NCBI GenBank assembly: GCA_973895155.1
Contig: OZ316891.1
Location: forward strand, 399,558 to 463,557
Source of the DNA: Marsupella aquatica
Taxonomy: Eukaryota; Plantae; Marchantiophyta
DNA: 64,000 bases
Reading direction: 5' to 3'
Shown: piece after piece, positions 23,937-51,814 of the stretch
Layout of the letters: each line of letters starts with the position of its first letter
Position numbering within the stretch: the first letter of the stretch is position 1
The notes under the pieces: model-generated
What the model was told of the DNA's origin: nothing
Seen by the model: only the letters and a program-made list of their open reading frames with translations
The model's database searches: none
Program-made: the position numbers and the translations under genes

Positions 23937-24290
23937 TTTTTTGAAAATTTGGGTAGTCGAATAGATCAATGCCTCGATCCTTCTAGGGATATGGAAGAGG
24001 TATTGACCAAGTTTTTACACCACTCGATCAAGAGGAAACATATGATGTGTCTGAGACCGCGCGAGTGGCTTACCGATGATATAATTAATGCTTATTTGAG
24101 CTTTCTCGAGCTGATTCTCAATAGAGTTGGAAAATCATAGCTTGTAAAATTCTTCCAAACACACCATTTCAAGCTTCTCTCCATGGATCCTACCGTTTTC
24201 GATGAGGACCAAGCATCTTGGACAGCGGACTTTCCGTTAAGAATCAGTGAATATGACAAACTAGTCTTTCCAGTTCACATTGCTGGGAAA
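23937..24290 (+). pseudogene. Ulp1/C48 SUMO-protease domain fragment
   Basis: CLRPREWLTDDIINAYL and YDKLVFPVH motifs; truncated just before the catalytic HW; TTGCAG acceptor at 23936. Confidence 0.8.
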
Positions 24291-31784: not shown

Positions 31785-34700
31785 TAGCTCCCCACTTAAT
31801 TGTGAAGCGTCCTCGCGAACAACTTCATCTTCGTCCATATAGTATTTCTTGAGGCGGTCATAATGGATGCGAACTGGATATACCTCTCCCGTAATGTTGG
31901 CCAATTGCACGGAGCCATTGGGGAACATCATGGTTACTCTAAAGGGTCCTAACCAGCGAGTGTAAAGCTTTCCTGGAAACCTATTATACCTACTGTCATA
32001 AAGTAGCACAAGATCACCGGTATGAATACTAACTACTTTTAACCTTTTATCATACTGCTGCTTCATGATATTTTGTCTATATTCTACTCTCTCGGCTGAA
32101 ATCATTCTCGCTTCCTCTAAAGCTTCTAACCTATATTCTCGCTCCTTTAGGCTCTCCTCCGCTGAGGCTCTTTCCTCAATTGTAACTTGAAATGTCGGTA
32201 TCTCAAGTTGCATGGGTACCAGGGCTTCTTGTCCAAAGGTTAAGAAGAAGGGTGTATGACCGGTAGTGGATTTATAGGCAAGATTGTAAGCAAAAACAGC
32301 AGCAAACAATTTATCATCCCAATCGAGTTTGTTCTGAGCTACTGTCTTGTTCAATATCTTTCCTATGATTCCGTTTGCTCGTTCTGTCAACCCGTTTGCC
32401 TTTGGATGGTAGGGAGTAGTAGGCCTATGTTTAACTAAATACTGCTCATTTAAACGACTAATTATATCATTCAAAAAATGGGTTCCTCTATCACTAACTA
32501 ATTCTAGGGGTGCTCCATACCTGGTGAAGATCTGCTCATACATGAATCTAGCCGTAGTAATTGCATCATCCTTCGTTGTTGGTCTGGCCTCTACCCATTT
32601 AGTTGCATAATCCGTAGCCAGGATTATGTACTTGTTCCGTTGAGGGTGGGTCAGTGGTTTCAGAGGTCCAATGTAATCAATACCCCACTTCTCGAATGGT
32701 GCCAGAGGTAGAATAGGGTGCAGTGGATGCCTGGTGGACGCCCTTGGTCCTCCCGCTCGTTGACAAGGATCGCATTGTTTGATAAACTGATAGACATCTT
32801 TGTGCAAGGTGGGCCACCAGTAACCGGCATTTAATATCTTCTTAGACGTGGTTACTGGGGCAAAATGTCCTCCGGCCTCCTCTCCATGCATGGCCCGTAG
32901 GACTCGTTTTACCTCTCTCTTTTCCAAACACCTTTGAATCGTGCCGTTGATTCCATGCTTGTGCAGTATGCCTTTAATGCACTGATACTGTCTGACCTTC
33001 CGTACAAAGACTGCGGCTTGCTCTCGGCTTAATCCTGGCTGTAATCTGGAAGTGCTGAGAAATTGTAAAATCTCAGGGTACCATGTACCAGCTATCTCCA
33101 CAACGAATAGCTCCTCGTCGGGGAATCGATCATCGATGCAATCCGTGGCAGGTTTACCTGTGATCCTTGAAAAGAAGTCGGCATTGGCATGTAACTTTCC
33201 CGGCTTGATCCTCAGCTCATAGTCAAACTCCTGTAATAGCAAAATCCATCTTGCTACTCTGCCTGTAAGGTCCGGCTTATTGACTAGGTACTTCAAACTT
33301 TCATGATCAGTATGAAAGATTACCTTGTACCCTAGTAAATAATGCCTAAACTTTTTACAAGAATAAATGACTCCTAATGCTTCTCTTTCCGTGGTAGAGT
33401 AGTTCCGTTCGGCATCGGCAAGCTGACGGCTTGCGAAGTATATGGGATGGTCCCTTCCTTTCTCATCCAACTGACTTAGTACTGAGCCAATACAGAAGCC
33501 CGAGACATCTACAAAAACATGAAAATCTTTGTTCCAGTCCGGTGCTATCATGACTGGGGCCTCTACTAACATCTGCTTCAATTCTACCACCGCTGTGACT
33601 CGTTCGGGTGTGGGTTCGAAGTCTGCTCCTGCCTTGAGCATATTGGTTAATGGTAAAGCCAGCTTGGCAAAATCCTTGATGAACCGGCGATAGTAACCAA
33701 TGCATCCCAAGAAGGATCTTACATCCTTTATGTTCTTAGGTTGCATGATATCTAGCCATACTGCTAGCTTACCTTTGTCAATCTCAATGCCCTTCCTTGA
33801 TACCTTGTGACCTAGTAGCACCCCCTCGGTTACTGCAAAAAAACATTTATCTGGGTGTAACTTGAGACCCACCTCTCTACATCTCATGAAGGTTTTCCTG
33901 AGGTATTTAGCATGTTTCGATGCCTTCCCGAATACTGCAAAGTCATCAATGAAGATTTCCATGAACTTTCTCAAGTAATCATGAAAAATGTTCACCATTA
34001 ATCGTTGGAACATAGCTGGTGCGTTGCAGAGTCCAAACGGCATACGATTGAAGACATAGATCCCCCATTCCGTGATGAAGGCCGTCTTGATTTGGTCTTC
34101 CTGCCGAATCCTGATTTGGTTATAACCAGAGTATCCATCCATGAATGAATATAGTTCATGACTGGCTACCATGTCTAGTACCATATCAGTAAACGGTAAA
34201 GGAAAATGGTCTTTTAATGTTGCTTCATTCAGCTTCCTGTAATCCTGACAAACCCGGATCTTGGGTTTACCATCGGGTCCAGGTTTCTTGGGAACTATCA
34301 CAATTGGAGACACCCAGTCTGAATGCAGGACTGGAGTGATGAATCCAGCTTCCACTAGTTTGTCGATTTCTGCTTTGACCAGCAGGGAATACTTCGGGTT
34401 CATCCTTCGAATTGGTTGTCGAAATGATTTGGCTCCTAACATGAGATCAATTTGATGTTCCCCTAGTGTTGGATCTACTCCCTTTAGATCTTGGTGACTC
34501 CATGCAAACACATCCTGAAATTCAATCAATAAGTCACTGATCTCTTTCTCGAGCTCAGGTGCTAGGTTTCTCCCTAAGTTCAGTTCTCTTCCCTCTCCTA
34601 AGTCAAGCTTCCGATATTGCCGTGCTTGGATCATATTAATCTGCTTCTTCAAATTCGGGTCCAGTTCGGCTTCCAGTCTCTCTAATCTCATACCTCCATA

Positions 34701-35039
34701 AACTGGGATCTCGGCTGGACTAGCCGAGTCGGTCCCTTCCTTGGTGTCCATAGATTGTCCCCTTACCGGTCTATTTGGTTTTGAATTAGTGGTCGGCTCC
34801 CCTTCCTGCCTTGGCTCTGGATCGTGTCTGTCCATCTCATCCACCTCTTGCTCCTGAGAGTTAGGCCGCTGTGCTCTCTCGGCTTCTAATAGGGCCTCAA
34901 TTTGTTCTGCCCTCGTAATCGGCTTGTATGCCGATCCCTTGGTATTTAATTTCTTGCCGATGATCGATGGCGTTGTGGACCCCGTCGGCTCTGCCACAAC
35001 GCCTGCAGAAAATCCACTGTCCCTGCTACTGCTCCCCAC
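31773..35039 (-). CDS. pol: Pol: reverse transcriptase, RNase H, integrase (intact; probably reached by -1 frameshift)
   Basis: CQDYRKLN, MDGYSGYNQI, MPFGLCNAP, FIDD; RH VDVSG..NYSTTERE; IN H-x6-H..CDPCQ, GIDYIG, SDRG, NGLTER, WLGPF. Confidence 0.96.
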   Translation of the reverse strand: MGSSSRDSGFSAGVVAEPTGSTTPSIIGKKLNTKGSAYKPITRAEQIEALLEAERAQRPNSQEQEVDEMDRHDPEPRQEGEPTTNSKPNRPVRGQSMDTKEGTDSASPAEIPVYGGMRLERLEAELDPNLKKQINMIQARQYRKLDLGEGRELNLGRNLAPELEKEISDLLIEFQDVFAWSHQDLKGVDPTLGEHQIDLMLGAKSFRQPIRRMNPKYSLLVKAEIDKLVEAGFITPVLHSDWVSPIVIVPKKPGPDGKPKIRVCQDYRKLNEATLKDHFPLPFTDMVLDMVASHELYSFMDGYSGYNQIRIRQEDQIKTAFITEWGIYVFNRMPFGLCNAPAMFQRLMVNIFHDYLRKFMEIFIDDFAVFGKASKHAKYLRKTFMRCREVGLKLHPDKCFFAVTEGVLLGHKVSRKGIEIDKGKLAVWLDIMQPKNIKDVRSFLGCIGYYRRFIKDFAKLALPLTNMLKAGADFEPTPERVTAVVELKQMLVEAPVMIAPDWNKDFHVFVDVSGFCIGSVLSQLDEKGRDHPIYFASRQLADAERNYSTTEREALGVIYSCKKFRHYLLGYKVIFHTDHESLKYLVNKPDLTGRVARWILLLQEFDYELRIKPGKLHANADFFSRITGKPATDCIDDRFPDEELFVVEIAGTWYPEILQFLSTSRLQPGLSREQAAVFVRKVRQYQCIKGILHKHGINGTIQRCLEKREVKRVLRAMHGEEAGGHFAPVTTSKKILNAGYWWPTLHKDVYQFIKQCDPCQRAGGPRASTRHPLHPILPLAPFEKWGIDYIGPLKPLTHPQRNKYIILATDYATKWVEARPTTKDDAITTARFMYEQIFTRYGAPLELVSDRGTHFLNDIISRLNEQYLVKHRPTTPYHPKANGLTERANGIIGKILNKTVAQNKLDWDDKLFAAVFAYNLAYKSTTGHTPFFLTFGQEALVPMQLEIPTFQVTIEERASAEESLKEREYRLEALEEARMISAERVEYRQNIMKQQYDKRLKVVSIHTGDLVLLYDSRYNRFPGKLYTRWLGPFRVTMMFPNGSVQLANITGEVYPVRIHYDRLKKYYMDEDEVVREDASQLSGELCDA
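31785..31799 (-). other. Polypurine tract, lying inside the pol coding sequence
   Basis: TTAAGTGGGGAGCTA immediately precedes the LTR TG; the pol stop (31773-31775) lies inside the LTR. Confidence 0.8.
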
Positions 35040-37939
35040 TTAGCCGTTTCATCCAATTGGTCTACATCCTTTACTTCCTCCGGAATTGCAGCTAAAAAGG
35101 TGGATTCTATTGTAAAGCAGTCCTCGACCTCTTCGTCTTCTTCTTCCAAGTCACCTTCCATTGGTTCTTGCCATAATCCGCTGGGGGGTACCTCTGGTCC
35201 AAAGACGCCTTCTTCGGTTAGGTTAGTGAGGCATTCTAACCAACGTACTTCATCGGCTGACTCCAGTCCACTATCGTACCCATCTACTTCCCTTATGCTT
35301 TTCCTACGGTCATCCTTAGTGTCCCAGGATACCGTGATAGAGGGGGTCCCGAAAGTGAACTGCTTTTTACCCCAATCTTCTATTACCTCGGCTAGGTACA
35401 GCCATGGCCTACCAATCAATAGCCGGAATGACGTAGGATTTACCGGCTTCATTACTACATAGTTAATGCTAAAGAAGATACCTCCTATCTCTGTCTTGAT
35501 GCCGGTTAACACTCCCGTCGGAATGACCTGATATCCATTGGCCATGTTCAACACTCTTCCAGTCATCTCCGGTGTTAGACCCCACCCTTTTGCTGTTGAA
35601 TCAATCATAATACATACCCCTGATCCTCCATCGATGGGTACCCGTAGTAATAATTCTCCTTGAATCATTAATGGTAATGCTGGGGCTCCTTGATCTTCTT
35701 CTATCATTAGTACGTCGGATCTGGTTGCTACCTTGGGTAATCTCGGCTTGCCGAGAATAGCCTTCCTTAATTGCTTCCGGAAGTATGGGCTATTTTTCAA
35801 TAGTTGACCTACTATTGCCGAGACTCTAGATTCTAGTACATCTTTAGCCAGGTCATAGGGAACAATCGGCTTCTCTTCTGGTGGTGTTTCCGTCTTGGAT
35901 TCGGCCAGTTTTGCCACGCTAGTCTCCACAGCTGTTGGGTCTTCCGAAGCAAACAATGCTTTTGCTCGTTTTACATCCTTGGCAATGGCTTCGGTATTCT
36001 CCAGGGTTTCTAATTCTCTTAGTTGTTCCTTAACACTAGCCGTAACAGAGGGGTAGAACAACTTAGGATGATCTCGATTGAAGTCGCTATCTTGTGAAGG
36101 ATTGGTTTCACTGGTGGGCTCATGGCTTACCTGTATTGCCGGAGCCCTCCCTTCTCCTTCTGTTGATGTTGACGAAGAGTCAATCCTTTCCTCCGTAACC
36201 TTCCCTTTATTTTTGGCCAGCCCATCCCACCTTTCCTTCCTTCTGGTAGATCGAGTAGAGACCCGGTAGCAATCATGATCTAAATCCTCCTCTGAGAAGG
36301 TTGATAGGGCTTCGGCCTCATCATCAGATGGTACGAACTCTGCCTCGGCATCCTCTTGCCATCCTAGTTCGATGTGGTTGATTTGAACTCCTCCGGGGGT
36401 AGTACCTGGCGGTAAGATCTTGATCGGCAAAAGCTTATGATTTGCGGCCAGGCCTGCCAACCAAGTAGGACATTGCCCTAGCATATGACCTTCCTGTCGG
36501 CATCCCATACATAGCTGAGCTGGTTGTCCATCACCCTGTTTGCGTGCATTCGGGCATTCTCTAGCAAAATGGCCAGGTTGACCACAATTATAGCACGCCG
36601 CAAATCTTTGCACATTCGGCCTAGGAGGTACTGACGGGTTCTGAATAATCCGAGGATACATCTCTCCTGGATTGTTCCTTAACCCTGACCACAGAGATGC
36701 AGGTCTGTTGGATAGGTCTTGTGCTCCAGTCTCACTGATGCCGAAAACACTATCAGCGGCATCTCCCAAAAAGTACTCTACTTCTCCCTGACATGGTCTG
36801 ATCTCGGCCACATGCCGAACATGATTAGTATTAAGCTTAGGACACGCATCTTTATGGTGTCCGGTTTTATAACATAAGGCACACCATACAGAGCTATCCT
36901 CCTGTACTACCTTCTTCTTTGGTTTTACCTCTGCAATGATAGCCTTAAGTTGCTCGGTAAGGGCTACGATGTTATCTGGTGGCTTAGCCTCCATCTTGAC
37001 TTTCGTCTTCCCTCTCCTTCTGCCCTTCCTTTTCCTAGTTTTTTCTTCTTCAGAACTAGAAGATGACTCACTCTTGCTACTCCCACTATCCGAGCTTGAC
37101 TTATCACTTCTAGACTTCTTGGAATGTTTCTTCTTCTTATCTTTTTTCTTATGGGGTGATCCCTCCTCTGATGAGGAACTCTCAGACTTAAGCTGTTTCT
37201 TCCGGCTTGTGATATCTGCATTAATGTATAATTGAATATCCTTAATTGCTTCGGCTAAAGTCTCCGGGTTCTCCTTCCTAATTGCAAAACTCATCTTCTG
37301 TGGCAAAGCATTCACCAACCATTGAAGTTGCATACCTTCAGATGCATTGGTCTTTGTACGTCTTACCAGTTTCTGAAAGCGTTGCAAGAACTTCCTGAAG
37401 GATTTGTTCTCCTTGAACCGAAGTTGTCCCAACTTCAGCACTGCTAGTTCTGAAGTTCCAATGGGTCGAAACTCCTTAACAAAGAGTGTTTTGAAGATAT
37501 CCCAGATGGCTTGATCTTCCACATCTAATGCTCTGTACCAAGGCCTAGCCTCACCCTTGAACAGGCCGGGAAGAATCTGCATCTTGATGGCCGATTCTCC
37601 ATTTGCTGCAGCGGTTCCCTCGAAATCATCCAACCATTCGTCCGGATCCTCATCTCCTCTCCCATGAAATGCTTTGTAATGTATGCGCGACCGCTGGCTC
37701 AATCTGGTCCCTGGCCTCTCGTCTGGCCGTGCCTCTGGTTCCCCCATGTCGGTTGGAGACTCACTTCTCCTTACCGACTCTTCCTCTGGTATGTCTTCTT
37801 CGACGCCACTTCCAGTTTCGGAGCTACCAGCTCTTTTTGCCCCTCTCAGTCGCTGTGTATCATGCCACCCGGCGAGCTGCTGCAGTCGAGCTCTCTCCCG
37901 TTGAATCACTCTTTCTTCCCTCGGCGTAAGGTCAGTCAT
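34946..37939 (-). CDS. gag: Gag-protease polyprotein (intact)
   Basis: FHGRGDEDPDEWL capsid motif, three CX2CX4HX4C knuckles, protease IDGGSG and LLIGRPWL. Confidence 0.95.
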   Translation of the reverse strand: MTDLTPREERVIQRERARLQQLAGWHDTQRLRGAKRAGSSETGSGVEEDIPEEESVRRSESPTDMGEPEARPDERPGTRLSQRSRIHYKAFHGRGDEDPDEWLDDFEGTAAANGESAIKMQILPGLFKGEARPWYRALDVEDQAIWDIFKTLFVKEFRPIGTSELAVLKLGQLRFKENKSFRKFLQRFQKLVRRTKTNASEGMQLQWLVNALPQKMSFAIRKENPETLAEAIKDIQLYINADITSRKKQLKSESSSSEEGSPHKKKDKKKKHSKKSRSDKSSSDSGSSKSESSSSSEEEKTRKRKGRRRGKTKVKMEAKPPDNIVALTEQLKAIIAEVKPKKKVVQEDSSVWCALCYKTGHHKDACPKLNTNHVRHVAEIRPCQGEVEYFLGDAADSVFGISETGAQDLSNRPASLWSGLRNNPGEMYPRIIQNPSVPPRPNVQRFAACYNCGQPGHFARECPNARKQGDGQPAQLCMGCRQEGHMLGQCPTWLAGLAANHKLLPIKILPPGTTPGGVQINHIELGWQEDAEAEFVPSDDEAEALSTFSEEDLDHDCYRVSTRSTRRKERWDGLAKNKGKVTEERIDSSSTSTEGEGRAPAIQVSHEPTSETNPSQDSDFNRDHPKLFYPSVTASVKEQLRELETLENTEAIAKDVKRAKALFASEDPTAVETSVAKLAESKTETPPEEKPIVPYDLAKDVLESRVSAIVGQLLKNSPYFRKQLRKAILGKPRLPKVATRSDVLMIEEDQGAPALPLMIQGELLLRVPIDGGSGVCIMIDSTAKGWGLTPEMTGRVLNMANGYQVIPTGVLTGIKTEIGGIFFSINYVVMKPVNPTSFRLLIGRPWLYLAEVIEDWGKKQFTFGTPSITVSWDTKDDRRKSIREVDGYDSGLESADEVRWLECLTNLTEEGVFGPEVPPSGLWQEPMEGDLEEEDEEVEDCFTIESTFLAAIPEEVKDVDQLDETAKWGAVAGTVDFLQALWQSRRGPQRHRSSARN
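34956..35015 (-). promoter_or_regulatory. -1 programmed ribosomal frameshift signal (slippery heptamer + stem/pseudoknot)
   Basis: G_GAT_TTT in the gag frame (35015-35009), 5-nt spacer, perfect 10-bp stem GGCGTTGTGG/CCACAACGCC. Loop GCCGA is complementary to downstream TCGGC. Pol is in the -1 frame. Confidence 0.8.
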
Positions 37940-37985
37940 TACCTACGCTTCCGTTCTAACTTCATATCTCACGGCTTAAGAAATG

Positions 37986-38004
37986 CCCCCTCCATCTAGC
38001 GCCA
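37986..38004 (-). other. Primer-binding site
   Basis: TGGCGCTAGATGGAGGGGG, 4 nt after the 5' LTR end. I did not identify the priming RNA. Confidence 0.8.
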
Positions 38005-38008
38005 AAAA

Positions 38009-41000
38009 TGTGGTGCGTCCCATGGCTCCCTAAACCCAAGAAACCCCCCAGCTCAAGCCGATTCCCGCAGGTTTCGTGCTTGGCGAGGCCGTTTCCGCGG
38101 CTTAGCGGCATGGGACGCTGCTAACCTTCTACTACTACTATTAACATTTTACACACATATACTGGACAGATCCTTCATCGGGTCATGAGATACGTAGCCG
38201 GCCTAATATAGGCCTTCCCTTGTCTTCCCCTGTCTTCCCCTCCGTCTTGTTAGGTATGTTTGGATTCCGCCGCCGGAATGATCCCCAATAGGCTTGGTTA
38301 AGCCGCTAAGACCTCTCTCAGCTCGACACATCCAACTATCACTCCCCTGCTTACTTTCCTTCCTTCTGTTGATGTGGGCACTCTTCACACAAGTTAATGC
38401 GACACACAAATAGCAAAATGACTCATTCTGACTGAGTCATACCATGCACTTGCCATACAAACAGTACATCTCATACACAAGTTCTGCGAACTAAGCCGTG
38501 AGGCCAACTCTATTCAGCTCTTAGGCATGAGGAAACATGAATATACACAAGGGTCACTGTATGACTAACCGAGAGCTTCTCGTACTACTTGATCCCAGCC
38601 CGGCTGGTGCAAACTAAAAACTTGCTAAAGAAGAGGCCCTGAGCTCCCCGCTGCCCAGGTACTTATCCTGGTAGTGGATCCGCCATTCTTTGCATCGTAA
38701 GCCTAATCTACCTGACAGTAATCTACTTGCCCGAATCTACCTATGTACAGCAAGGCAGGAGCACAAGTGTTGCTCCTACCAGTGGAACCGCAATCCCACT
38801 AAGCTAAGTGTCAGGGCCGCTCCTGGTTCTGATCCTAATCCTAAACGTGGAGATCCGCGCCCGCCCTGCCCACTCACGCTCCTCCCTCCACGTCCGCCCT
38901 CCCTAAAAGGAACGGCGCCCTTGCACCGTCACGACACCGGTGGTGGATCCTCAATGGACGCCCCCAACACTTCCTCCTCAGCCACTGCCGTTGGCCCGCC
39001 TACTGACAGATTACCTGCCCTTGACCGAGTCAACTCTCCATCGGCCTGACTGGGTCCACCTTCGGCTTCAGCCTCGACACCGGCCTCGGCAATACCCACG
39101 GCTTCGGCCTCAGCCACTCCCACGGCTTCGGCTTCAGCCACTCCCTCGGCTTCGGCCTCCCCTTCCCCTAGGGTAGTTGGATCCTTAGCCGTGACCCTGT
39201 CTAGGGTCGGTGCTGGGTCTACCTCCTTGATCACCACGGCCTGTGAAGTCGTATTACTCCTTGACCCTGAAGGTTTCCGCTTCTTCTTCGTTGGTGGCTC
39301 GGCAGCTGGTCCCTTCCCCTTCCCACTTACTTCCGGCACTGGTGCAGTTGACGCGGCTTGTCCTTCGGCAATTACCACCCCTGGTAACTGGTTTGTCCCA
39401 ACGGGAGATGGACCTGCTGCAGCTAAGCATTTAAATACTGCGGCTTGTTTCTTCAGCCGCTCTGTTTGGTTGTCGGCCCGCCGCTGTAGGTTCTCCATCT
39501 TCCTCATGATTTCCTCCAACTCCTCTTGGGTTTCATCCAGGTCCTTACGTGCCCCCTCCAGCTCGTTTTTGGCCTCCTCCTGCTCCCTGTGGGCTTCCTC
39601 CAATTCCTTCTTCAAGGTAGCCCTCTCCTCCTGGGTTGCTCTTAGCTCCTTGTCGAGCTCTGCAATGATGACAGACTCCATCTGGTTCATCTTGGCGTAA
39701 GTCTGTTCGAGCATCTCGTCCTTCTCCCTTAGGTCGGCCTTGAAGCTGGCCGTCAGGGACGCAAGCTCCTGCTGCAGCGCCATAATCCCTTGATAGGATT
39801 TCCCTAACTCGACCTCCTTCTGCTCAAGGGCTCCGCGGATTTTCTCGAGCTCCCCTTTCAACGCCCATTCCTTTCTTTGGGTCTCCGCCATGGCCCGGCT
39901 GTTGGCTGTTATGTGGGCCTCCTCTGTATTCTTCAGCTCTTGCTTCCACTTCTCCCTCTCTTTGATCGTGTCGGCCAACTCTTCCTGCGTCTGAGTCAGT
40001 TTATCCTTGATATTCTGATTATCAGCCTGCGCGGCGTCCAACTGCCCCTGCATGATGTTCAGCTCATGTCGTTTAATCCGCAGTTCATCTTGGGCTTTCT
40101 TGGCCGCCCTTAGATCTTCAATCTCGGCTTCCATCCTCCTAAGCCGCCGAATGACCTCGTCCTTCTTGCTTCTCTCTAAAGCCACCGCTTCTTCTAATTG
40201 GTGCTTCTCCAACTGCTCCCTATGAAAAAAGGGTCCTACCTCCAACTCCTCTCCAAAGATGCCAAGCGCAAGTTCCCCACATATCTCACCATACTCCATG
40301 GCTCTATTCTTAGCGTAGGTGGAGTAAGTAGAAGTGATCGGCATCGCCCATCGTGGCCTCTGCTCCCACGCCGTCTTGCGGATCTCTTCAATCGTGGCTA
40401 GAGGTTTGCTTCCTTTTTCGGCTAGCCGCCTGATGTCCTCCGGCCAATCTCCTCCTGGTAAATCCTTTTCCTTAGCCAGGGCGGCCTCTTCCTCCTGCTT
40501 GATTCGCTCCTGAAATTCCTGCACCGTCTGTTTTATGCCGTCGAAGCTCGGGGGAGCAACATCTGGTGGGGGAGACTCAGGGCTACTCTGCTGGTTGGGG
40601 TCCCCTCGCACTACCCTTGGAAGTGTGGGGACAAACCGGCCACAGGTCCTTACTCCTGGAACGTGATGGTCCGACCCATAGCCGGAATTATCATGGCTGC
40701 AGTCCTCCACTGCCTCCTCTACCTCTTGGACGTCCGGCTTCTCCCTCTCCTCTTCCTCGGTAGGAGCTTCAGGCAATTCTGCCTCAGATTCGGAGCTTGA
40801 GGTTCCCACGTACATTCGAACACCTGGCTTGGATTCCGGCCTGATTCTCTTCTTGTCTCCAGCAAAGGGGTTTTCTCTTGTGAGCCGGTGTAGGCCTACC
40901 TCTGTAGTAGTGTCCTGCATTGTTGCCGTTGCCGTTGTTGTTGCCGATGCCGATTTCTTTTCTTTCTCCAGTAGTTTCAGCAGACTCTGCATGCCTGGTT

Positions 41001-42667
41001 GCTGCATCGGCAAGTCTTCCTTCCTGGGCCTAAACACCTGCTCGATCGTAGGACTAACAGGTGGTTGAGGCTTCTCAGCCAACGGCCTCGGCGTTGGAGC
41101 TTCCTCGGGTGCCCTTACCTGCAGGGGAAGTACCGGGGCAAAAGTCTGACCTCTGGCATACCGGCACAACAGCGGCATGTGATAGCCAAGCCGCGACACG
41201 CTTCCCATGCCGATTACCTGCTGCTCCTCCTTTAAGATCTTCTTCAATTGGTTGAGGAGGTACCCGTTGTAGTCCCGGCTTGGGTCTGGCCTTTCTGCCA
41301 GATAGACCTGTGCTTTGCCGATCTCTGCCCTCGGCAAGTTACAATGCATGGTCACCCGCAAGAAGTCGATCATCTCTCCTATGTGCGGGTTGGTGCAGGT
41401 GTTCCGGAAGAAGCCATTCTTCGTTGATGGCCCGGGGAACGACCGGAACTCCTTGTCAGGCAAGGTCTTCCTGGTATCAACTTTGGTCTTATTGCCTATC
41501 GGCAAGCCAAACACTTCGGCAATTACCTTGGGAGTAAGATAGAAATCCTTCCCATATATCCTCGTGCAATTGGTCTCGGGTTCCCATGACCCCACGAATT
41601 CTAATAGGTCTGACTCCGGTACCTCCGGCTTCAGCCATGGTAATCTTACAAAGGCCTCCAAGCCGGATCCGGCCATGAAGCCTTGGTACTTCTTGGTCTG
41701 CATGGCCGTAAAGCATGCATCCTCCTCCCGTGCAAAATGTAGTTGCACCTCCACCGGTAGGGTTTCCGCCCAGCCCTTCCAGGTGTCATCCCTGGTTGGA
41801 ATGGCCTTGATGGGATTGACCTCCTCCTCTTCGGCTTCTCCGTGCCCCTTGCTCTGCTGCTCGGCTGGCTTCTTTGGTGCCGCCAACCTCGTTCTTTTTG
41901 CCGGGGTGGCTTCATTGTTGACGGCCCCCTTCCTCTTCATCTCTGCTGCCGTGGAGGTTTCTCCTAGCACCGTTGCCCGGGTCCACCTTTCCGTGCTACC
42001 CTTTAATTCCCAGTGTATGTCGTTGCAGTTCTTGATGGCCTCTCGGATGCCGACGACGCTGTCTTTGCAAAATAGAAGATCGTCGAGTTGATTGGAAGTA
42101 GGCGTCCACAGGAACTCGTCCTTGATGAGTTCGCCTCCTAAGAAAGCCGTCTTCTGCAGCTCCCACAATCGAGCGAGCTCCTGCCGTTCTCGAGCTGCCC
42201 TTTCTGACTCCTCGTCCTCGTAAGTCTTGATGTACTCAGTTGCCCGTTCGAACAGGCATCCCCAGAAATGTGCCGCTTGATTGACGTTGCTCATACCCTC
42301 CTTAGGTCGATCGTCGGTATCTACTCTCTCCCCGAGTGCTTGCCTAAGCAGCTGACAGTAGTTGGCCTCCCGTAGTCGTCTGCCTAGTTCGTGCTCGCAA
42401 ATGAGCCACCATCTCCTGCAAGCGCTCCTTACCCCTCTCCTCTACCGGTCCTTCTTCCCGTTGATCCTTCCTAGCCGCCGACGCTTAACGCGCCCTAACC
42501 CTAATCGGGTTTTCACCCTCAGCCTTACCTCCGGCCTCGGCCCGGGTTCCATGGTTGCCCCTAATTGTTTATATTTTCCTGGTTTTGTCCCTATACTAAG
42601 GTGTTCCTAGGGTGCCTTCCTGCTTTACCCACTTAACCGGTCGAGTGATTCCTGTCTAGGCATCACA
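38009..42667 (-). repeat. 5' LTR (4659 bp)
   Basis: Direct repeat of 27132-31784; about a dozen substitutions and two indels seen by eye. Confidence 0.97.
38929..42294 (-). CDS. LTR-encoded accessory protein, 1121 aa (plant-transposon accessory-like N-terminal domain, long coiled coil, acidic tail)
   Basis: Uninterrupted ORF wholly inside the LTR. It has LLEFVGSW..RIYGKDFYLTPKVIAEVFGLP, about 270 aa of E/K/L heptads and a KKKRK NLS-like motif. Confidence 0.9.
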   Translation of the reverse strand: MSNVNQAAHFWGCLFERATEYIKTYEDEESERAARERQELARLWELQKTAFLGGELIKDEFLWTPTSNQLDDLLFCKDSVVGIREAIKNCNDIHWELKGSTERWTRATVLGETSTAAEMKRKGAVNNEATPAKRTRLAAPKKPAEQQSKGHGEAEEEEVNPIKAIPTRDDTWKGWAETLPVEVQLHFAREEDACFTAMQTKKYQGFMAGSGLEAFVRLPWLKPEVPESDLLEFVGSWEPETNCTRIYGKDFYLTPKVIAEVFGLPIGNKTKVDTRKTLPDKEFRSFPGPSTKNGFFRNTCTNPHIGEMIDFLRVTMHCNLPRAEIGKAQVYLAERPDPSRDYNGYLLNQLKKILKEEQQVIGMGSVSRLGYHMPLLCRYARGQTFAPVLPLQVRAPEEAPTPRPLAEKPQPPVSPTIEQVFRPRKEDLPMQQPGMQSLLKLLEKEKKSASATTTATATMQDTTTEVGLHRLTRENPFAGDKKRIRPESKPGVRMYVGTSSSESEAELPEAPTEEEEREKPDVQEVEEAVEDCSHDNSGYGSDHHVPGVRTCGRFVPTLPRVVRGDPNQQSSPESPPPDVAPPSFDGIKQTVQEFQERIKQEEEAALAKEKDLPGGDWPEDIRRLAEKGSKPLATIEEIRKTAWEQRPRWAMPITSTYSTYAKNRAMEYGEICGELALGIFGEELEVGPFFHREQLEKHQLEEAVALERSKKDEVIRRLRRMEAEIEDLRAAKKAQDELRIKRHELNIMQGQLDAAQADNQNIKDKLTQTQEELADTIKEREKWKQELKNTEEAHITANSRAMAETQRKEWALKGELEKIRGALEQKEVELGKSYQGIMALQQELASLTASFKADLREKDEMLEQTYAKMNQMESVIIAELDKELRATQEERATLKKELEEAHREQEEAKNELEGARKDLDETQEELEEIMRKMENLQRRADNQTERLKKQAAVFKCLAAAGPSPVGTNQLPGVVIAEGQAASTAPVPEVSGKGKGPAAEPPTKKKRKPSGSRSNTTSQAVVIKEVDPAPTLDRVTAKDPTTLGEGEAEAEGVAEAEAVGVAEAEAVGIAEAGVEAEAEGGPSQADGELTRSRAGNLSVGGPTAVAEEEVLGASIEDPPPVS

Positions 42668-42709
42668 GAAACCAAATAGGGAGTCCGACATCAGAAGAGG
42701 CCAAGTACT

Positions 42710-44128
42710 TTACTCCAGGTCAAATTCATCTTTCTCGCTTGAAGGCCCAGCCTGTTCATCCCCTGGAATTGTGAACTCATCATCCGACCCAGCGTCTTGA
42801 TTAACCTTTTCTGGCTGATCCCTAATCTGTTTTGCCTTGCTCGAATGCCTCGCCAGAACACTGTTTAAAGTTTTTTCTGCACAGCAATGGAGAATGTCCC
42901 TATCTTCAACACCAACAACAAATCTCCCAGAGAATTCTCCGGCAGAAAAGGAGCTACCGTCACACACAGTCCAGTCAAGGACTATATCTTTGGGCTTCGT
43001 GAGGAATTCCATCACGGCTTGCATGAACCCAATTGAAAGCCTTTTCGATCCAGCAAGAGCCGCTTCTGGACAGGGGTCAGTCTTAGGGTAACAAACACTC
43101 AACATTGACTTATGTCTTGCATCTTCCGAAGACGTCAATGGAACATACGCTGGGTCTTTAGGAATCTTTGCACTAAATTCCACCCGACAAAAAACATCCA
43201 GGATGAGAGTGCACACCTGCATAAAAACTAAAATACATCAGAAACAATGCTAACTTTGTTAGCGAGCTCGCTAGCATTAACCTAGTCGGAAAATAGAAAA
43301 TTAACAGTCACCTAAACCGGATATGTTTGGTACCTAAAAATTATAATTTTGTTAGCGACATCGCTAGCATTAAAACTCTCAAGAAATTAAAGGGATAACT
43401 ACCTCAATATCCATATCTGCCCTCCATAAAGGGGTGGACAACAAAACGGTATATTGCTGCACATGTTTGAATTTGTTTTTTTGCTTGACTGCCGTAAATA
43501 TTTGCCTCATGTGATTGAAGTCTGAGCTGTGCAAGACAGCAACATATCCGCCGTCTGAAAGCATTGGTCTCATCACTCCAAAAAAATAATATGGGAGTTT
43601 CTCGCTCCAAACATTCCAAGATGGAACCTGTTTGTCTGTAACGCTTGTTCTATGCCCAATTGGAAGAGAAATGAATCCCAAATGTGCTCCAATCCCAGCA
43701 TACGGTTTTCCATTAATTATGACATGGTTCGGGCACTCTACGCTCTTCGACATCCCAGTAATCCATCGATCTCCATCTCCCATCCAAGATGGTCTCACTT
43801 TACTTACACTAATTGAGTTTGCAGTATCGGTCAAATTGCTACGAGCCAGGAAATGTCGCTGCCCATCCATCTTCAAACCACACATCCGAGCAACACCTTG
43901 AGCAACTGAAACTTCCTCATCGTCGGAATCTGAAAGAATCTGGATGTTTCGCTTCCGTTTCAAACGTTTTATACTTCCTAAATCCACTGCGCTCTTTGTT
44001 GTGACTTCGGCATCTGGGGACTGAGGTTCCTCACCATCATCTGCTCCACTCTTCAAACTCTCAGAAGCCGCTCCCTTCCTCCTCTCTGTGAAGAAAAAGA
44101 CATTAGTGTCTGTATATTCGACACCCAT
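42710..44128 (-). CDS. Spliced N4/N6 DNA-methyltransferase-like gene (gene C, 3' exons)
   Basis: A phase-0 GT-AG intron (43402-43217) joins the two ORFs in frame. Motifs: GFISLPIG..WN..MLSDGG, then LTKPKDIVLDWTVCDGSSFSAGEFSGRFVVGVE (SAM-binding region of beta-class amino-MTases). Confidence 0.65.
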
Positions 44129-45311
44129 CTGGACTTAAAAATAAAAAGTAACATACAATTAACAGACTTACTTGGCTTTACGGATCTCCCTAGATATGGT
44201 GTAGCCTAAAGTTTGCGTGGTCTTAAGGCAGACCCTAATGTCTACATACAGTTTCATGAAATAATGGAACCTTATATTTGAATGCATTAACCTTATACTC
44301 ACCTTAGTATTAAGATCTGGTAGAAGATGAATATCACATCCAAGGGGTATACATTGTTGTTTGAATAATGGTAAAAACTTCCCAAAAGCTTGAAATACAA
44401 GCTATATGCCACTAAATCTTGGGAGTAAAAAACAAACTGAACCCTAAACCACACATGTCTATAAAAGATAAACTGAGAGGACTCCAAAAGTCAAGAAGCT
44501 GGCTAAGCTGACCCAATGAAGGTAAGTGGCTCAATACATAACACTTTAAGAGAAACTCCACTCCGGATTACATGGAGCTTAGATTTGGGAAACTAGAACA
44601 TGAATGAGCTCCGAAGTGGGCGTCTCCCAAATTATACCCTTTGCTCAAGTCGGCTCAACCGGAAATCGCGTGAAGATAAGGGTTGAGTACGCGTTCACCT
44701 TAGCTTGCGGACACACCTTATCTTCATGAGCCTAATTGCGCGGGGACTACCATGGAAGGCTGTTAGGTAGGCAGGACATCAAGGAAGGAGGCCGTATGCA
44801 AGGTGAGGGCAACGGGCCGTACGCCATAGCAGGCCGTACGCAGTAGAAGGAGGCAACCGGCCGTACACAGGCCGGGGTGAGGCAGGAGGGGGTAAAGGGA
44901 CGGAGAGGTCCAGCCAGGACCTCATTCTCATTCTCTCACTCCTCGCTCTCTCGCTCTCTCGCTCTCCTCTTGCTCTCCTCCTCACTCTCTTGCTCTCCTT
45001 GCTCTCCGCTCTCTCTCCGCTCTTTGTTCTCTCTCTGCCTCCCCGCCTCCGCCTGCCTCTGCCTTCCACCTTCCACCTCCATTCTTTTTTATTGCCCTAG
45101 ATCGGACACCTGCTAAGACGCCACGTGTCACGCTGCCACGTGTTAGAAAGATGGAAGCGAATTGCATCCTTGTGATGTCCTACGTGGAAGAAACGGAGGA
45201 GTTTGACCTCTCCTCTATGAGCGACAGTGTGGAACTTGCACTCGAAGACTCTAGACAATTTCAATCACGAATCCCTAGTAAGTATCTATCACCTATCCTC
45301 CCTAAGTCTTA

Positions 45312-45518
45312 GAGGACTGGGACCATCCCAATCCAAACTTGGACTCGAACCAGCCAAATCCAAACTTGGACTCGGATGATCCCAATCCAAAGTTGGACTC
45401 GGACCATCCCAATCCAAAGTTGGACTCGGATGATCCTAATCCATCTGGGAGATTGAATCCCGATTGTAGGAGCAAGTCTAAAACCATCTCAAGTTGGACT
45501 AGGACCATCCTAATCCAA
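45312..45518. repeat. 27-bp tandem array of an imperfect palindrome (5 copies + 1 detached)
   Basis: TTGGACTCGGA-NNA-TCCCAATCCAA variants at 45312, 45339, 45366, 45393, 45420 and 45494. Confidence 0.9.
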
Positions 45519-47307
45519 CAAGAGTTATTCGAATGTTTTAAAGGTTTCAAGTCTAACATGGATGACGTTTATGATGCAGGGAGTGATCTTGTTGTTTTCA
45601 AACCCGCGATTGCACCAACCCACTGCCTGGACGGATTCTTACTAGATGAGAGATCCCCACGCTTTCGATGGGGGCTTGAGTTCTCAAGAACCCCGCTTAA
45701 TAATGAAGTGCCATCAACCACGATTGAACCTATTTTGACCTTAAAGTGCAGAGAAAATGATAGCCTGACTTTTGTTTGCGGACCTGTGGTCTCTGTTGGC
45801 ATTGGAGGGAGAGGGATGAATACGGTCATTCTCGAGATGCACGATAAGTCCTATTGGGTTAAAGTTAACCTTCTGTCAAAGGCATACTCCTCTGAATTCA
45901 ATGTCGAATGGCACGCAAGTGGGGAATTGAGCGTTTTGTCAATGGGATTTTTTCCAAAGACCTATGACACAAAGAAGTTGGTCGCCGGGGTAACTGGTAT
46001 GCTTCCAGTCGACATTATGTATGGGTTTCAATATTTGAAACTCAACATGATGAAGCACCAAGGCAATTTTTCTTTTGCAACTACCTGGACGTTAAGCAAT
46101 TTACTTGAGAAAGCTGGATTGTTATCGTTGGAGTCGGAGGAGCCTGGTGTTTTAATTGATAAGGATGTTGCATTTGCTCCCAAGTTTGATTTAGTCAAAG
46201 CAAAGCAATGGATAGAATCTTTGTCCAAGATGAGAAAGCTTCCAGCGGTGAATACAAACCCTGTGCCCGAGAAAGCGCCAGAGAAAGCTCCAGAACCTAC
46301 AACAGAGACCGCGGGAACTATAGCAGCGACCTCTCAAAGAGCAGTGGGAAGACGAAAACAAAGCCAAAGGAAACCTCCGATTGAGAAGAAACTTCCGGTT
46401 GAGAAGCTGAGTATGAGAAGCCGAGTTGACAAGCCAGTTGACAAGCCAGTTGAGAAGCCGAGTACGAGAAGCCGAGTTGAGAAGCCAGTTGAGAAGAAAC
46501 GTCCGGTTGAGAAGCCGAGTGCAAGTGAAAAGAGACCAAGACAGAAGAAGAAACGGAAAATTGACAGTGCCATCATGGATGACACTACAGAAAACCTGAC
46601 AGTGCATTCACAAGATGTGGACGAGCAGTTGGACGCTCTTGAGGAGAAGAAGGTCTTAGAAGGTAATGAGGTATTGCAACAAATGGAGCAATATTATACG
46701 TTTGGGATCAATTCAATATTTTCTATTCCTGTAGACAGTATTTTCCCTGTGTCGGCAAGACTCTGTTACAGAATGTTGAATGCAGAACATGTAAAGGAGG
46801 TGGCCAATTCCATGATAAGAAATCCGGGGCATGAACCACACATAGCAGACTTGATTCCTTACACTACAAAACATAGAAACCTAATGCAGTATGACAACAC
46901 AGAATCAGATAGGAGGGACTTTGTAGCAGCCGTGAAAAAGGGCGAGGTTCAATTCCTTGCCATTAGCGGTCAACATTCGGCTAGAGCAGCCAGATGGATT
47001 CAAGAATGGGTAAACAAGGATGCCAAGCTGACAGCATTGGCGAAAAAGCTGGAATTTTGAAAGTCAAGAATATTATCTCATCGAACACCATCGTCAATAT
47101 TAGTTGAGCATTCAATGCGATCTAATGCGATCAATAGCACGATGGTGTTTCAGTCATGCTTCAAAGATACAGTCGTTCATGCTAGGCGACAATTTGTGGA
47201 ATGTGGAAAACCTAGCTGGCCAAAACATGGGGACAACAAAACAAACGCTCAAGACAATCAAAAATTTCAGGTACGAAGTGTTACTGCTTGATGGGTACAA
47301 TACCGTA

Positions 47308-47701
47308 GATTCATGCACATTCAGTAGAATATTTCCACTGATATCGCCTAGTTTTGCGTTGGACCGGGATGGTCCCAGTCCAAATGGATTCATGCACATT
47401 CAATAGAATCTTTGTCCACTGATATCGTCTAGTTTTGTGTTGGACTGTGATGGTCCTAGTCCAAATGGATTCATGCACATTCAGTAGAATATTTCCACTG
47501 ATATCGCCTAGTTTTGCGTTGGACTGGGATGGTCCCAGTCCAAATGGATTCATACACATTCAATAAATTATTTTTCCACTGACACTGTCTAGTTTTGTTC
47601 TGGACTGGGATGGTCCCAGTCCAAACTAAATCATGCACGTTCAATAGAATATTTCCACTGATACTGTCTAGTTCTGTGTTGGACTGGGATGGTCTCAGTC
47701 C
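47308..47701. repeat. Intronic tandem repeat, 5 units alternating 79/81 bp, each with a 25-bp palindrome
   Basis: Unit starts 47308, 47387, 47468, 47547 and about 47628; core TTGGACTGGGA-TGG-TCCCAGTCCAA. Confidence 0.92.
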
Positions 47702-50387
47702 GCACCTGAGTGCTATCAAACAATTGAGTTATGGAGAACTAATAGACTTTCCTTTGCAATTGTAGGATTGGTTGGCTCTTGCAAGAATGACCATGGGAAG
47801 GAAAGATTGTCGAAATGTTTACTGGTTACTATTTGCGGACGATGCTCTTTTTGAGTTATGGAGTTTGGTATGCCAGTTGTGGTTGGATGGGAAACTTCCC
47901 GATGGAGCTGGGGTAGAAGGAAATGAGAAGTCTGAAAAAGCAATTACTGTTGCCATGTTTCGTTGTTTTGATGGTGAGTTGATCTCACAACGAGACATCA
48001 CAAGAATACTGACGCGGGTGAAGTCAGGAAAGGTATTGCTAAAGAAAGATGCCTCTAATAAATCAGACATGCCATCTATAGAGGAGTTGGCCAAAGATGT
48101 CAAGATCGTGCGGAAACTGAAGTCCCTTATTGAAGACTTCTATTGCACCAAGGATGCGGTGAATTTCCCGGCAAATACTAATTGGGGGAAAGTAGTGGAG
48201 GTTCTTCCTACGCTAGCAATTGATTCAGAGTTCAGCAGGTGTCGAAGAGCCGCTGGCGAGGTCTATCTTGCCAACCTTTTAAAACCAAATCATACGCGGG
48301 AGAGCGCAATCTTGCCGACGGCATTGGCATTCCGCCTAGATGATATATACTGCCAGAAATTTGGCGGAGGATCACGTTCTCGGACCCTACCATGGGCTAC
48401 ATTTTTTAGCGACAATCTCATGAGGACCATTGATCCAGAGTCATTGCAAGAAGCTCCTCCGACCTGCCCTCTTGCCATTGTTGATTTTAGCCGGCTTCCG
48501 CAAAAACAATGGATTGAAGTAGAGATTCTTGTTCTCTTTGAATACATTGTGGAGCTTCCACAAAATCCCACCATTGTTGTGATGATAACAGTTCATCCTG
48601 GACAACTTGCATTGAATGTCCATGGTGCCCTTCGTAAACTGGGACAAGAGAAAGCTTTGACCATTCATATTGAGTATGGGAGTTATTCTCGAGATGATCA
48701 ACCGCACCCTCATGACTCATGTTGGGGTGGGGGGATTGAAGAAGTTATCTTTGCGGGGATTTCTCGAGATGAAGACGTCAATTGGAATGAAGTTTTCAAG
48801 CCCAACTATCCAAAGCCAAAATTTTTGTATACTTCAAAGGATGTTGATTACGAAGTATGCAAGATCGACAAGGGAAAGGGGAAGGCTAAGGAATCAGATG
48901 AGGGGACACAAAACGACGACCTAAAAGTGGTTTTGGACCCGGAAGAGGCCGTCAAGATTATGAATATGGCCCCTCGATTTGAGACAGTTGGCAGTCGCGG
49001 AGGGTGGGTTAATCCTCATGCCAAACCCACGCGGATGATCCAAAGGATTATTGAATCCTTGTCAGAACCGGGAGATTTGGTTCTAGATTTTTTCTCCGGT
49101 GGCCAAGTCATGAAGACATCATTTTTTTGCGATAGGAATGCTTTGTTTATTGTGACTCTCACTCCGAGAGGCATTTTGTGGAAGCTTTTGCTTCCTACCT
49201 TTGCAAGAGAGTTCCCTCACTTAAAGCTCATTGTGAATCACTTGCTGAAAATTCTCGACAATGGGCTACCACTATTGCGGCTGTAGCTGTCGCTGTTGAA
49301 TCCGATGGTTCTGAGTCTGAAGATGTTGCTGACAAAGTGGCTGAAGGCGTAGAGGCATCAGAGGAGGCATATGTCATGAATTTGGATGACCGTGTTGGTC
49401 AAGGTGAGCCTTACGATGTAGATGATGATATTGGACTTGCACCAAACCGTTCATCTGGTTTAGATGACATCCCTCCGAGGCCCAATGAAGTTCAAGTTGA
49501 TGATAACTTGGACAAGGATGATCCCAATCCAACAACGCCGGGAGGACAGATGGAGCAACTGGAAGGAGCAAGGGTTGATACGTTTGATCATCTTTCTTCA
49601 ACCAATCTGATCAATGAAGGCGCAACGAGGCTCGGAGATTCAAATGAAGCTGAAACTAAAGAATTGACTCGGGGGGAGACCGAGGGGGAGACTAGCGGAT
49701 TGCCTGACATTTCGATCAATCCAAGAGGAAATGCATCAACGGCTGCTGACAACCAGGCAGGTGCTTCAACTTGTCCTGACACACTCTTTTCAGCTTCTGA
49801 TGACAAATTGGTGTTCGTTCGTTCACACTCGGGGAGTCCTATTGTCCTTTTGCTCTCAAAAAAGAAAGGAAATAAAGTTGGATCAACTGGATGGAGGTCA
49901 TTGGAATGTGACGCACGATGTTACGTGTGGAAAAGTGGGCCAAATCGAGGCCAAGAAATATCATTGGATGCTGCTCCTTCAATTCTCAATAAGGAGGAGT
50001 ATAAGAGTGGAGAATTGGGGTTGATAACTCCTATTTGGACTTCACCTTATTGGGTAGAACAAAGTACTTCAGATGTCAATTTTGAAATCCAATAGGAGCT
50101 TGGTGCTGACATGATTATTGATGAATACGGATCTCTTATTTCGGAATGAAATTCAGCCTTTGACTTTGTATTTATTCATATCAATCTAAAATACTTCTTG
50201 GTCTCACAGAATGCGCTCACCAATTAAAGTCTCCATATCCGTCTACACATTGTGAGGCTTCTAAAAACGGTATGTAGGTTAATTTTCTTTTTTGTCAGCC
50301 ATTGTCTTGTATTTTTGGACTGAGACAATCCTAATCCAAAGTTCACTTTTGGTCTTTTCTCTGAGAATGGTGTTTGGTGCACTTGCA

Positions 50388-51424
50388 GAATCGAGACCTG
50401 GTCCCCTCAAGCGGAAGTTGCTGATTTTGGACCTTAATAAAATACTTTGGGATTCTATTGAATTCCAAAGCAAGGGCACATCCAGGAATATTGTCACCTC
50501 AAGTGGAGTGCATTGGGATAGATCAAATGGAACTAGTCGCATGTATACAGAGAGGCCACGGCTCCATGAGTTTCTAAAGTTGGTTTTTGACCGGTTTGAC
50601 GTTGCAATTTGGACATGTGTTGGGATGCCGCGAATAGTGAAAATGTTGAACATGATGTTCACAATTGAGGAGCGGTTGAAACTGAAGTTTGTATTCACAC
50701 AGGTGGAAGCCTTTGACACAGGCATTCAAAGGCGTGACGTTACAAATGGAAAGGCAAATGTGCTATTGAAGGATTTTCGGGTGGTATGGAGTGCATTTGG
50801 AAATCTATATGATGAAACCAACACACTCCTTGTGGATGACTCCCCCTTGAAGGCATTTACCAACCCAGACATGACCGGTCTATTTCCAGTGCCCTACACG
50901 CATGCCAATCGTGGAGACAATTTTCTTCTAACAATTCTTTGGCCATGTCTTGAGAAACTGCACATGCAAGTGACATTCGTTGTTATCTTCTCCTAAACTC
51001 TCCAAAGTGGTCTCTATTGCACATTAAGAGAGACAAGGCAAAAAATGAGATTACTTATGATCAACTTAGTAAGAGATGTGCAGCAAAAATTTGGAAGTCA
51101 CAGTATAGGCATAGTGTGCTGGACCTCAATAGCAATGAGATTCCTTGGGCTGTGAAGCACCGTATATGTAGCTTACGTCCTGAGGTGGAACTTGACGATG
51201 CACTTGTCACCTCACTTGCTAGATCATTTGTAGGACGGGAATATTCAGGTCTGTATAGAGAAAATCCCAAACACTTTTTGCGGGAGATTATAGCAGTTAG
51301 GAACAACACCACCAAATTTCATCTCCCTGAAGATAAAGGGAGTTGCAACCGTGACATTAGGGTAGATAGTAAAGGAGACAAAGGCACATGCGCAAATAAA
51401 TATTGTAAGGAGCACTTTGTTTAG
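50388..51424 (+). pseudogene. FCP1/NIF (HAD-superfamily CTD-phosphatase-like) domain with Cys-rich tail
   Basis: KLLILDLNKIL, ERPRLHEFLKLVFDRFDVAIWT, LLKDF, NTLLVDDSPLKAFTNP; preceded by a splice acceptor; frameshift near 50970. Confidence 0.8.
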
Positions 51425-51694
51425 AGATCTGACTCATGTTAAGCGCATTAGATAGTAAAAATGGGTGCCAGCCCTGGATATTCATTATAAGTTTGGACAC
51501 AATTGTATATAATTATTTTCACACATTATCAATCAATGGTCCTTGCCTGGGCTTCTTTGTGCGGAAATGTTTTTACAAGTATGATCTCTATCCCATGGTT
51601 CTTTGTGAACTAATAAATAATATAATACTATTATAATTAATATAATATATTATTAATACAATATATTAATATAATACTAATAAGATTTGGCCTA

Positions 51695-51814
51695 TAAAGT
51701 GTACATTTAGGTATCAAAAAGTGTACATTTGGACTTCGTAAAGTGTACATTTGGGGACATAAAAGTGTACATTTCAGGACTGATTTGTGAACAAAAGAAA
51801 ATACACTTTACCCC
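51695..51814. repeat. Spaced AAAGTGTACATTT repeats ending in ...ACACTTTACCCC; possible DNA-transposon terminus
   Basis: Four copies at 21-23-bp spacing after an AT-rich tract, abutting a truncated LTR relic. Confidence 0.55.

Follow-up and report, generated by a model that had tools for sequence, protein, structure and literature searches.

ParB-methylase accessory genes are a class already known from algae, where such genes and adjacent inverted-repeat arrays have been published for giant transposons. In Ectocarpus, the available description of the 21.5-kb family Sola1-1_Ec32 includes a protein of 1104 amino acids with a ParB-like domain and an N4C/N6A methylase, and proteins of this type are put forward there as possibly forming a new class, able to bind the element that encodes them and to modify it (PMC12477816). 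In Bostrychia, the accessory genes outlined for Plavaka elements include the ParB-like PAG3, with adjacent inverted-repeat arrays, and the methylase PAG2 (bioRxiv 10.1101/2025.02.11.637652). Iyer et al. mention inactive methylase domains of DIRS1 elements as well as chlorophyte fusions of ParB-HTH with Dam (PMC4738411). Here, we analyzed 64 kb of repeat-rich eukaryotic DNA (hereafter the window) of the liverwort Marsupella aquatica (GCA_973895155.1, contig OZ316891.1, positions 399,558 to 463,557), focusing on one gene, called gene B. With a slight lean in its favor, our reading is that gene B is a dead copy of an accessory gene, multicopy and interrupted by introns, that belongs to a large liverwort DNA transposon. 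The intact protein would join a ParB fold to a likely non-catalytic methylase fold and is predicted to bind intronic 25-bp palindromes.

As described, the Ectocarpus protein resembles gene B in having both domains in one eukaryotic protein of similar size (1104 amino acids versus ~1420 codons), encoded in a repeated multigene unit. In this comparison by description, gene B differs in belonging to a land plant, in the loss of the catalytic motif across its family, in its extra N- and C-terminal domains and in the absence of any transposase seen. The likeness to PAG2 and PAG3, in the outline given of them, lies in a ParB-like domain visible by remote homology only, in tandem inverted repeats tied to the ParB gene and in a separate methylase-like gene in the cassette. 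However, the red-algal genes pair ParB with a 2-oxoglutarate oxygenase and the methylase with a SET domain, with the repeats adjacent, whereas gene B pairs ParB with a methylase fold and has its repeats in introns. Our literature search, which covered neither subscription papers nor bioRxiv supplements (e.g., Bostrychia Supplemental Table 6), found no description of the gene B family in land plants.

Other known systems share single traits with gene B. The beta-class DNA amino-methyltransferases (PF01555, including M.MboIIA, CcrM, M.RsrI and M1.HpyAVI) have the same fold and motif order, with the catalytic strand first and the S-adenosylmethionine loop last; gene B differs from them by lacking [DNS]PP[YFW], by a glycine loop one residue shorter and by being both eukaryotic and spliced. 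Marchantia MpDN4MT1a/b and rotifer N4CMT are described as active host enzymes that carry SPPY, MpDN4MT1 having no extra domains, and changing SPPY to APPA is reported to abolish the activity of the rotifer enzyme. An earlier annotation of the stretch from its letters (the original prediction) drew a parallel with these 4mC (N4-methylcytosine) enzymes, which holds for the beta-class fold in a eukaryote (structure 8s9n, Z 10.1) and breaks down at SPPY, absent from gene B. Bacterial ParB-parS systems share the ParB/Srx fold and clustered palindromes; gene B has SGQHS in place of the Arg-bearing motif, and no ParA was seen here. The VANC anti-silencing proteins are described as binding motifs amplified as tandem repeats in introns of their own VANDAL elements (PMC5735166). 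Their likeness to gene B is functional only, as far as they are described: an element-encoded factor with motif arrays in its own introns, for which homology is not expected. The VANC motifs also differ, being given as 8-9 bases long and in one orientation (PMC5735166).

Results

Gene B is a decayed copy of a spliced gene

Our model of gene B has three exons and 1420 codons (Table 1). It is interrupted by stops at codons 555 (TGA at 47058-47060 in exon 2, where 49 of the 55 aligned rows have Arg) and 1402 (TAG at 50093-50095 in exon 3), and by a single one-base frameshift at 49134, also in exon 3. With two premature stops and a frameshift, the copy in the window is a pseudogene, a decay that the original prediction overlooked, as it did the palindrome arrays described below. 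Sister copies are in frame at 49134, because an extra base there makes up 92-98% of the depth in runs X1-X3 (run X5 has no coverage at this point); neither premature stop was among the 40 differences viewed in the contig comparison, which holds 1345 more. All features of the window are given in Table 1.

Table 1. Features of the 64-kb window (window positions)
Feature	Position	Strand	Remarks
LINE	~6.2-11.8 kb		long frames
Two tandem F-box-like frames, weak	14202..15345	+	Pfam E 0.01-0.05, below cut-off
Copia remnant			bounded by identical 63-bp repeats at 15868 and 17639
Gene D	18217..18819	+	very diverged ParB-like domain, the second of its kind here, with GGQHT and one stop
ULP1/SENP-like protease fragment	23988..24290	+	one stop; SENP1 E 0.0027; Pfam C48 E 0.02, below cut-off
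Ty3 LTR (long terminal repeat) retrotransposon	27132..42667	-	5-bp target duplication GAAAC; context, outside the module
Gene A	42710..44128	-	open spliced frame of 410 codons with intron at 43217-43402, head-to-head with gene B
Gene B, predicted exon 1	45151..45277	+	ATG 45151, phase-1 donor GTAAGT; predicted from sequence
Six palindrome copies	45312..45518	.	predicted gene B intron 1; five at 27-bp spacing
Gene B, exon 2	45523..47270	+	conserved N-terminal domain, basic low-complexity linker, ParB-like domain
ParB/Srx-fold domain with helical extension	46641..47249	+	SGQHS motif at 46965-46979; model, Foldseek, VIA and profile match
Gene B, intron 2	47271..47765	+	GT..AG, phase 0; position conserved in family
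Five palindrome copies	47359-47703	.	gene B intron 2; ~80-bp spacing
Gene B, exon 3	47766..50149	+	helical region, beta-class amino-methylase-like fold, acidic linker, conserved C-terminal domain; stop TGA 50147-50149
Methylase-like fold	48471..49170	+	first strand ends DFSR; motif X-I region KP..VLDFFSG-GQV
Single palindrome copy	49508..49532	.	coding region of acidic linker
Predicted 60-nt exon	50210..50269	+	upstream of NIF frame; AG before, GTATGT after; coding or untranslated
Palindrome copy	50315..50339	.	predicted intron 50270-50388
Gene C	50389..51424	+	FCP1/NIF-like HAD domain with C-terminal extension; DLNKI motif, DD retained; in-frame ATG 50367
Second Ty3 element	from 53038 onward

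The original prediction had already read an intron into this frame, and intron 2 is well supported: two annotated Calypogeia proteins read across the phase-0 GT..AG intron at the same junction. Among the matches to the ParB-like part in which its last helix was located, 30 of 43 end in [FWY]xV soon after it, an expected pattern because a bacterial gene caller would run into the GT donor, and 4 of all 77 matches extend into exon-3-like sequence. No contig joint viewed in four runs was a GT..AG splice, which says nothing on expression either way. The conserved N-terminal (45600-46250) and C-terminal (49775-50149) domains match no Pfam family. The peptides quoted in the original prediction lie on the forward strand: frame 45306-47060 holds YRMLNAEHVKEVANSM and FLAISGQH, frame 47766-49286 holds AIVDFSR (Asp codon at 48483) and KPTRMIQRIIESLSEPGDLVLDFFSGG (DFFSGG at 49086-49103), frame 49136-50095 the acidic linker and frame 50391-50993 the NIF domain.

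The ParB-like domain is recognized by its structure

The ParB-like part has 77 relatives, and the domain was modeled from 55 sequences with a pLDDT of 94.9. The top 13 Foldseek rows for this model are all ParB, Noc, PadC or Srx (best E 1.1e-3). Of 48,161 chains compared by VIA-align, 14 scored Z>=2. KorB ranks first (Z 7.4, rmsd 2.8, 93 residues aligned), and PadC, SerK, pNOB8 ParB, SbnI and Srx are also present; 13 of the 14 we take to belong to the ParB/Srx superfamily or to be related to it. As modeled, the ParB/Srx fold is a safe assignment, because the agreement extends across the superfamily in spite of middling single scores. The domain claimed from the letters is hence borne out by structure, and not by Pfam or PDB sequence matches. 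The SGQHS motif is found in 42 of the 55 aligned rows. In the Atlas, the matches were unnamed clusters at 0.94-0.95 and, at 0.90, a single cluster with ParB_N in 11% of its members, with a recognition value of 2304 that barely reaches the threshold of 2300.

The methylase-like domain has lost its catalytic motif family-wide

The methylase-like domain matches PF01555 above the Pfam cut-off (E 1.4e-6), and its family profile matches M.RsrI (E 7e-8). Its structural model matches MboIIA (Foldseek E 2.8e-5; VIA Z 12.1, rmsd 3.8, 154 residues aligned) and also CcrM, RsrI and rotifer N4CMT; the first 11 VIA rows are presumably all beta-class DNA methylases. On the strength of the model and these matches, the beta-class N4/N6-methylase fold that had been proposed is real, permuted and Rossmann-like, with motif X-I at the C-terminal side. 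Searches of phage sequences by tblastn returned essentially the motif X-I stretch of ordinary methylases (E 0.01-0.8).

The catalytic motif IV, [DNS]PP[YFW], is absent from the window's domain and occurs nowhere in any of nine relatives. The original prediction had noted a degenerate motif in this copy; because none of the nine relatives carries it, the loss is a trait of the family and not decay of the copy in the window. The first strand ends in D-[FL]-x-R in 7 of the 8 matching rows and in DLIA in the other, while one relative is deleted at this site and one is too short to reach it. From the order of the fold, DFSR would occupy the motif IV position. Motif I reads SGG-[QV] in all eight covering rows, versus GSG-S in phage enzymes, and the glycine loop is one residue shorter than theirs.

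One could argue that intact copies are nevertheless active DNA-modifying enzymes with a rebuilt active site, working alone or with the product of the neighboring gene A, and that they mark their own element with 4mC, N6-methyladenine (6mA) or another modification. Such an activity would fit the conservation of the first-strand Asp and of the D-F-F-S-G loop in relatives at 20-59% identity, the open frame of gene A, head-to-head with gene B, and the proposal, in the available description, that the Ectocarpus protein modifies its own transposon. Yet PP[YFW] is missing in 9/9 relatives, the APPA change described for the rotifer enzyme kills its activity, and gene A and its three relatives likewise lack [DNS]PP[YFW]. 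We thus regard active modification as unlikely.

Palindromes cluster in the introns of gene B

A 25-bp palindrome, composed of 11-bp arms TTGGACTGGGA and TCCCAGTCCAA separated by 3 bases, occurs at 13 sites in the window. All lie in 45312-50339, i.e., only inside the pair formed by gene B and the downstream gene C, and none was found in 100 shuffles. Predicted introns hold 12 of the 13 sites (six in intron 1, five in intron 2 and one in the intron preceding the NIF exon), and the remaining one is in the linker. Part of this count is due to tandem duplication. Some contigs skip 45336-45540 or 47309-47440 (with few other letters between), which suggests that other copies of the gene carry fewer units. 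The presence of copies in both orientations across three introns points to a kept site. A scan of viral contigs with the palindrome revealed no related loci, although absence is not proven by such a short pattern.

Relatives and copy number

Among 30 relatives that were looked up, 11 carry a species name, and all of these are liverworts (2 Calypogeia fissa, 9 Riccia sorocarpa). The nine Riccia sorocarpa paralogues are spread over at least five different contigs, and in the annotations of both Riccia and Calypogeia the paralogues are dispersed and often truncated. In Marsupella, the region 42400-52200 was matched by 274-5336 contigs per run in the four runs, at identities from <90% to >99%, in agreement with the amplified module proposed initially. 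All 30 bins of this region and of 11800-27200 were covered in every run. In run X3, the depth is 15-17 for the two contigs that match the left block exactly, and sister contigs reach 364-431 at gene B and 434-459 in the region of gene D; as depth is not copy number, we take these values only as a sign of many copies, in similar number for both blocks.

No close prokaryotic or viral relative was found. Short-pattern scans, by which absence is not proven, found no related loci in metagenome contigs, viral contigs (scanned with the NIF frame as well as the ParB alignment) or prokaryote genomes. With similar genes already reported on algal DNA transposons, the horizontal acquisition that had been suggested is not supported as a fresh event.

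These data also bear on the possibility that the genes form a host cluster, domesticated or ampliconic, spread by segmental duplication instead of transposition. Such a cluster would account for the lack of both a transposase and element ends in the 64 kb, and for the conservation of the intron and of the C-terminal domain. It fits poorly with the dispersed, often truncated paralogues of Riccia and Calypogeia, with the wide spread of copy identities and with the broken frames of genes B, C and D, and we find it distinctly unlikely.

The FCP1/NIF-like frame downstream of gene B

FCP1/SCP phosphatases of the RNA polymerase II C-terminal domain carry the motif DxDx(T/V). Downstream of gene B, frame 50391-50993 encodes a NIF domain (Pfam PF03031, E 5.9e-14), whose sole PDB match is UBLCP1 (E 1.4e-8) and which reads DLNKI in place of DxDxT. 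The frame is shifted near 50960, but in each of the four runs most of the depth has an extra base that bridges this break, giving a frame of ~345 codons for this gene, gene C. A diverged contig spanning 50041-51387 shows that the linkage of B and C is present in another copy. The 60-nt exon at 50210-50269 and the NIF exon each accept a phase-1 donor. Splicing to the NIF exons would keep the frame from the donor of exon 1 and from two cryptic donors (49404 and 49761), and would lose it from that of exon 2.

This arrangement could be taken for an alternatively spliced ParB-methylase-HAD fusion that recruits a phosphatase to chromatin. The stop of gene B and the next predicted exon are only 60 nt apart, the top-scoring of the 47 GT sites in 49140-50146 (49404, AAG/GTGAGC) is in frame with the NIF exons, and the diverged contig keeps the linkage. 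However, donors scoring like 49404 arise about once per kb in coding DNA by chance, the exon-2 donor is out of frame while exon 1 alone is also in frame, and the HAD motif is DLNKI. Gene B itself terminates five codons past its IDEYG motif, and in all four relatives extending as far as I[DY]E[YF]G the protein stops 4-17 residues after it, without a NIF-like frame. Because of these endings, the main product of gene B is predicted to be unfused to the NIF-like frame, and we hold the fusion to be quite improbable. Gene B and the FCP1-like domain are probably linked in a physical sense only, with the NIF-like frame likely encoding its own product within the same element. The proposed connection to a Pol II or chromatin effector is consequently not upheld, given the DLNKI motif, UBLCP1 as the sole PDB match and the end of the methylase-like protein at its own C-terminal motif.

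Neighboring genes and retroelements

Gene A has three unnamed relatives and weak matches to methylases (E 0.1; prob 3.7%); as a weak lead, it might be a second degenerate beta-class methylase-like protein, possibly stand-alone. Its intron has two copies of another palindrome, of 20 bp, at 43257-43276 and 43350-43369. Gene D was recognized by the family profile (E 2.7e-15) and by tblastn, and its end coincides with a GT donor where the family has its intron. In a tree of the ParB domain (46 rows, without outgroup, rows of <150 residues left out), it has a very long branch, and the tree is uninformative on origin. A methylase-like domain after gene D (18977-20290) seemed plausible by eye and was rejected, as three profiles did not detect it. 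The intron of gene D (18848-18922), at the position equivalent to the palindrome-bearing one of gene B, has three 25-bp tandem units around an ATGCAT core. ULP1-like and F-box-like frames flank gene D. A long Glu/Lys/Ala-rich repetitive frame (22282-24290) leads to the ULP1-like fragment, and the two may be one broken gene.

The types of the LINE, Copia and Ty3 elements were assigned from translations of long frames. The main gene block of 9 kb is flanked on both sides by Ty3 elements, the left one inserted immediately past the 3' end of gene A. Their LTRs (27132-31784, 38009-42667 and 53038-57719) are 4.66 kb each and carry a long frame of ~1170-1230 codons that shares the strand of gag-pol and, in the first LTR, is broken; these frames have a coiled-coil region and no significant Pfam family. 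Past the left Ty3 insertion, downstream of gene A and on its strand (26729-27052, reverse strand), lies a 108-codon frame without a family match. Just past gene C, at 51695-51774, four AAGTGTACATTT units with 22-bp spacing, possibly subterminal repeats of the element, are followed by an LTR-related fragment from ~51813.

Discussion

If gene B is the accessory gene that we favor, its carrier would be a large DNA transposon of liverworts. The methylase fold would only grip DNA, without catalysis, and the palindrome would be read by the helical region between the two folds, at 47766-48360, or by the methylase fold itself. By analogy with VANC and VANDAL, the bound protein might keep the element expressed or mobile. 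The ULP1-like, F-box-like and second ParB-like neighbors, which are typical of giant elements, count in favor of this reading.

Several observations weigh against it. The ParB-like domain went undetected by Pfam, PHROGs and PDB sequence search, its best Foldseek E is 1.1e-3, and its VIA Z scores stay below 8, in the range that the tool rates as common. Bacterial ParB CTPase clamps have the nucleotide-binding motif GxxRxxA, with an Arg. In the gene B family, the GxxR Arg position is Ser in 51 of the 55 rows and Arg in none, and because of its absence from all rows CTP clamping by this domain seems doubtful. The methylase-like model is the weaker one (mean pLDDT 62), and hhalign aligned only the C-terminal, motif X-I half, so that the placement of DFSR at motif IV follows from fold order. 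Gene D has no copy of the 25-bp palindrome. No transposase was recognized among the frames of the window, and neither terminal (inverted) repeats nor a target duplication were found there for the module, whose flanks are cut by retroelements.

A broader version of the same idea is that liverworts harbor an undescribed giant element that recognizes itself by a eukaryotic counterpart of ParB-parS; its own sequence would amount to at least 18 kb, in the window 14.2-51.8 kb once later insertions are subtracted. The protein with a ParB fold and a dead methylase would load on the intronic palindromes and shield or activate the element. It would be helped by the second ParB paralogue, by the stand-alone pseudomethylase, by a HAD domain whose transcript is alternatively spliced from the first exon that both share, and by the SUMO protease and F-box proteins. 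We hypothesize that genes A-D lie within one such element and go no further, because none of the contigs listed bridges the gene B and gene D blocks and a repeat of much higher depth lies between them (25.2-27.1 kb). The full scheme is rather unlikely.

ParB, methylase, HAD, ULP1 and F-box genes are also found in large DNA viruses, and two small Atlas look-alike clusters are listed as 50% viral, but a decayed, intronised endogenous DNA-virus region is very improbable: the long frames of the window showed no recognizable hallmark gene of viruses, the family keeps its introns, and each of the 11 relatives with a species name comes from a liverwort.

Returning to the accessory gene of a liverwort transposon, what this locus adds is a liverwort variant whose whole family has lost the catalytic motif, and a defined palindrome in the introns as the likely target. 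Gene B is neither a new 4mC writer nor a functional gene at this locus. The locus extends the ParB-methylase accessory class to liverworts, and the gene B family suggests that methylase chemistry is dispensable in it. The 25-bp intronic palindrome is a concrete candidate target, which makes the idea of self-binding testable in a plant group with genetic tools.

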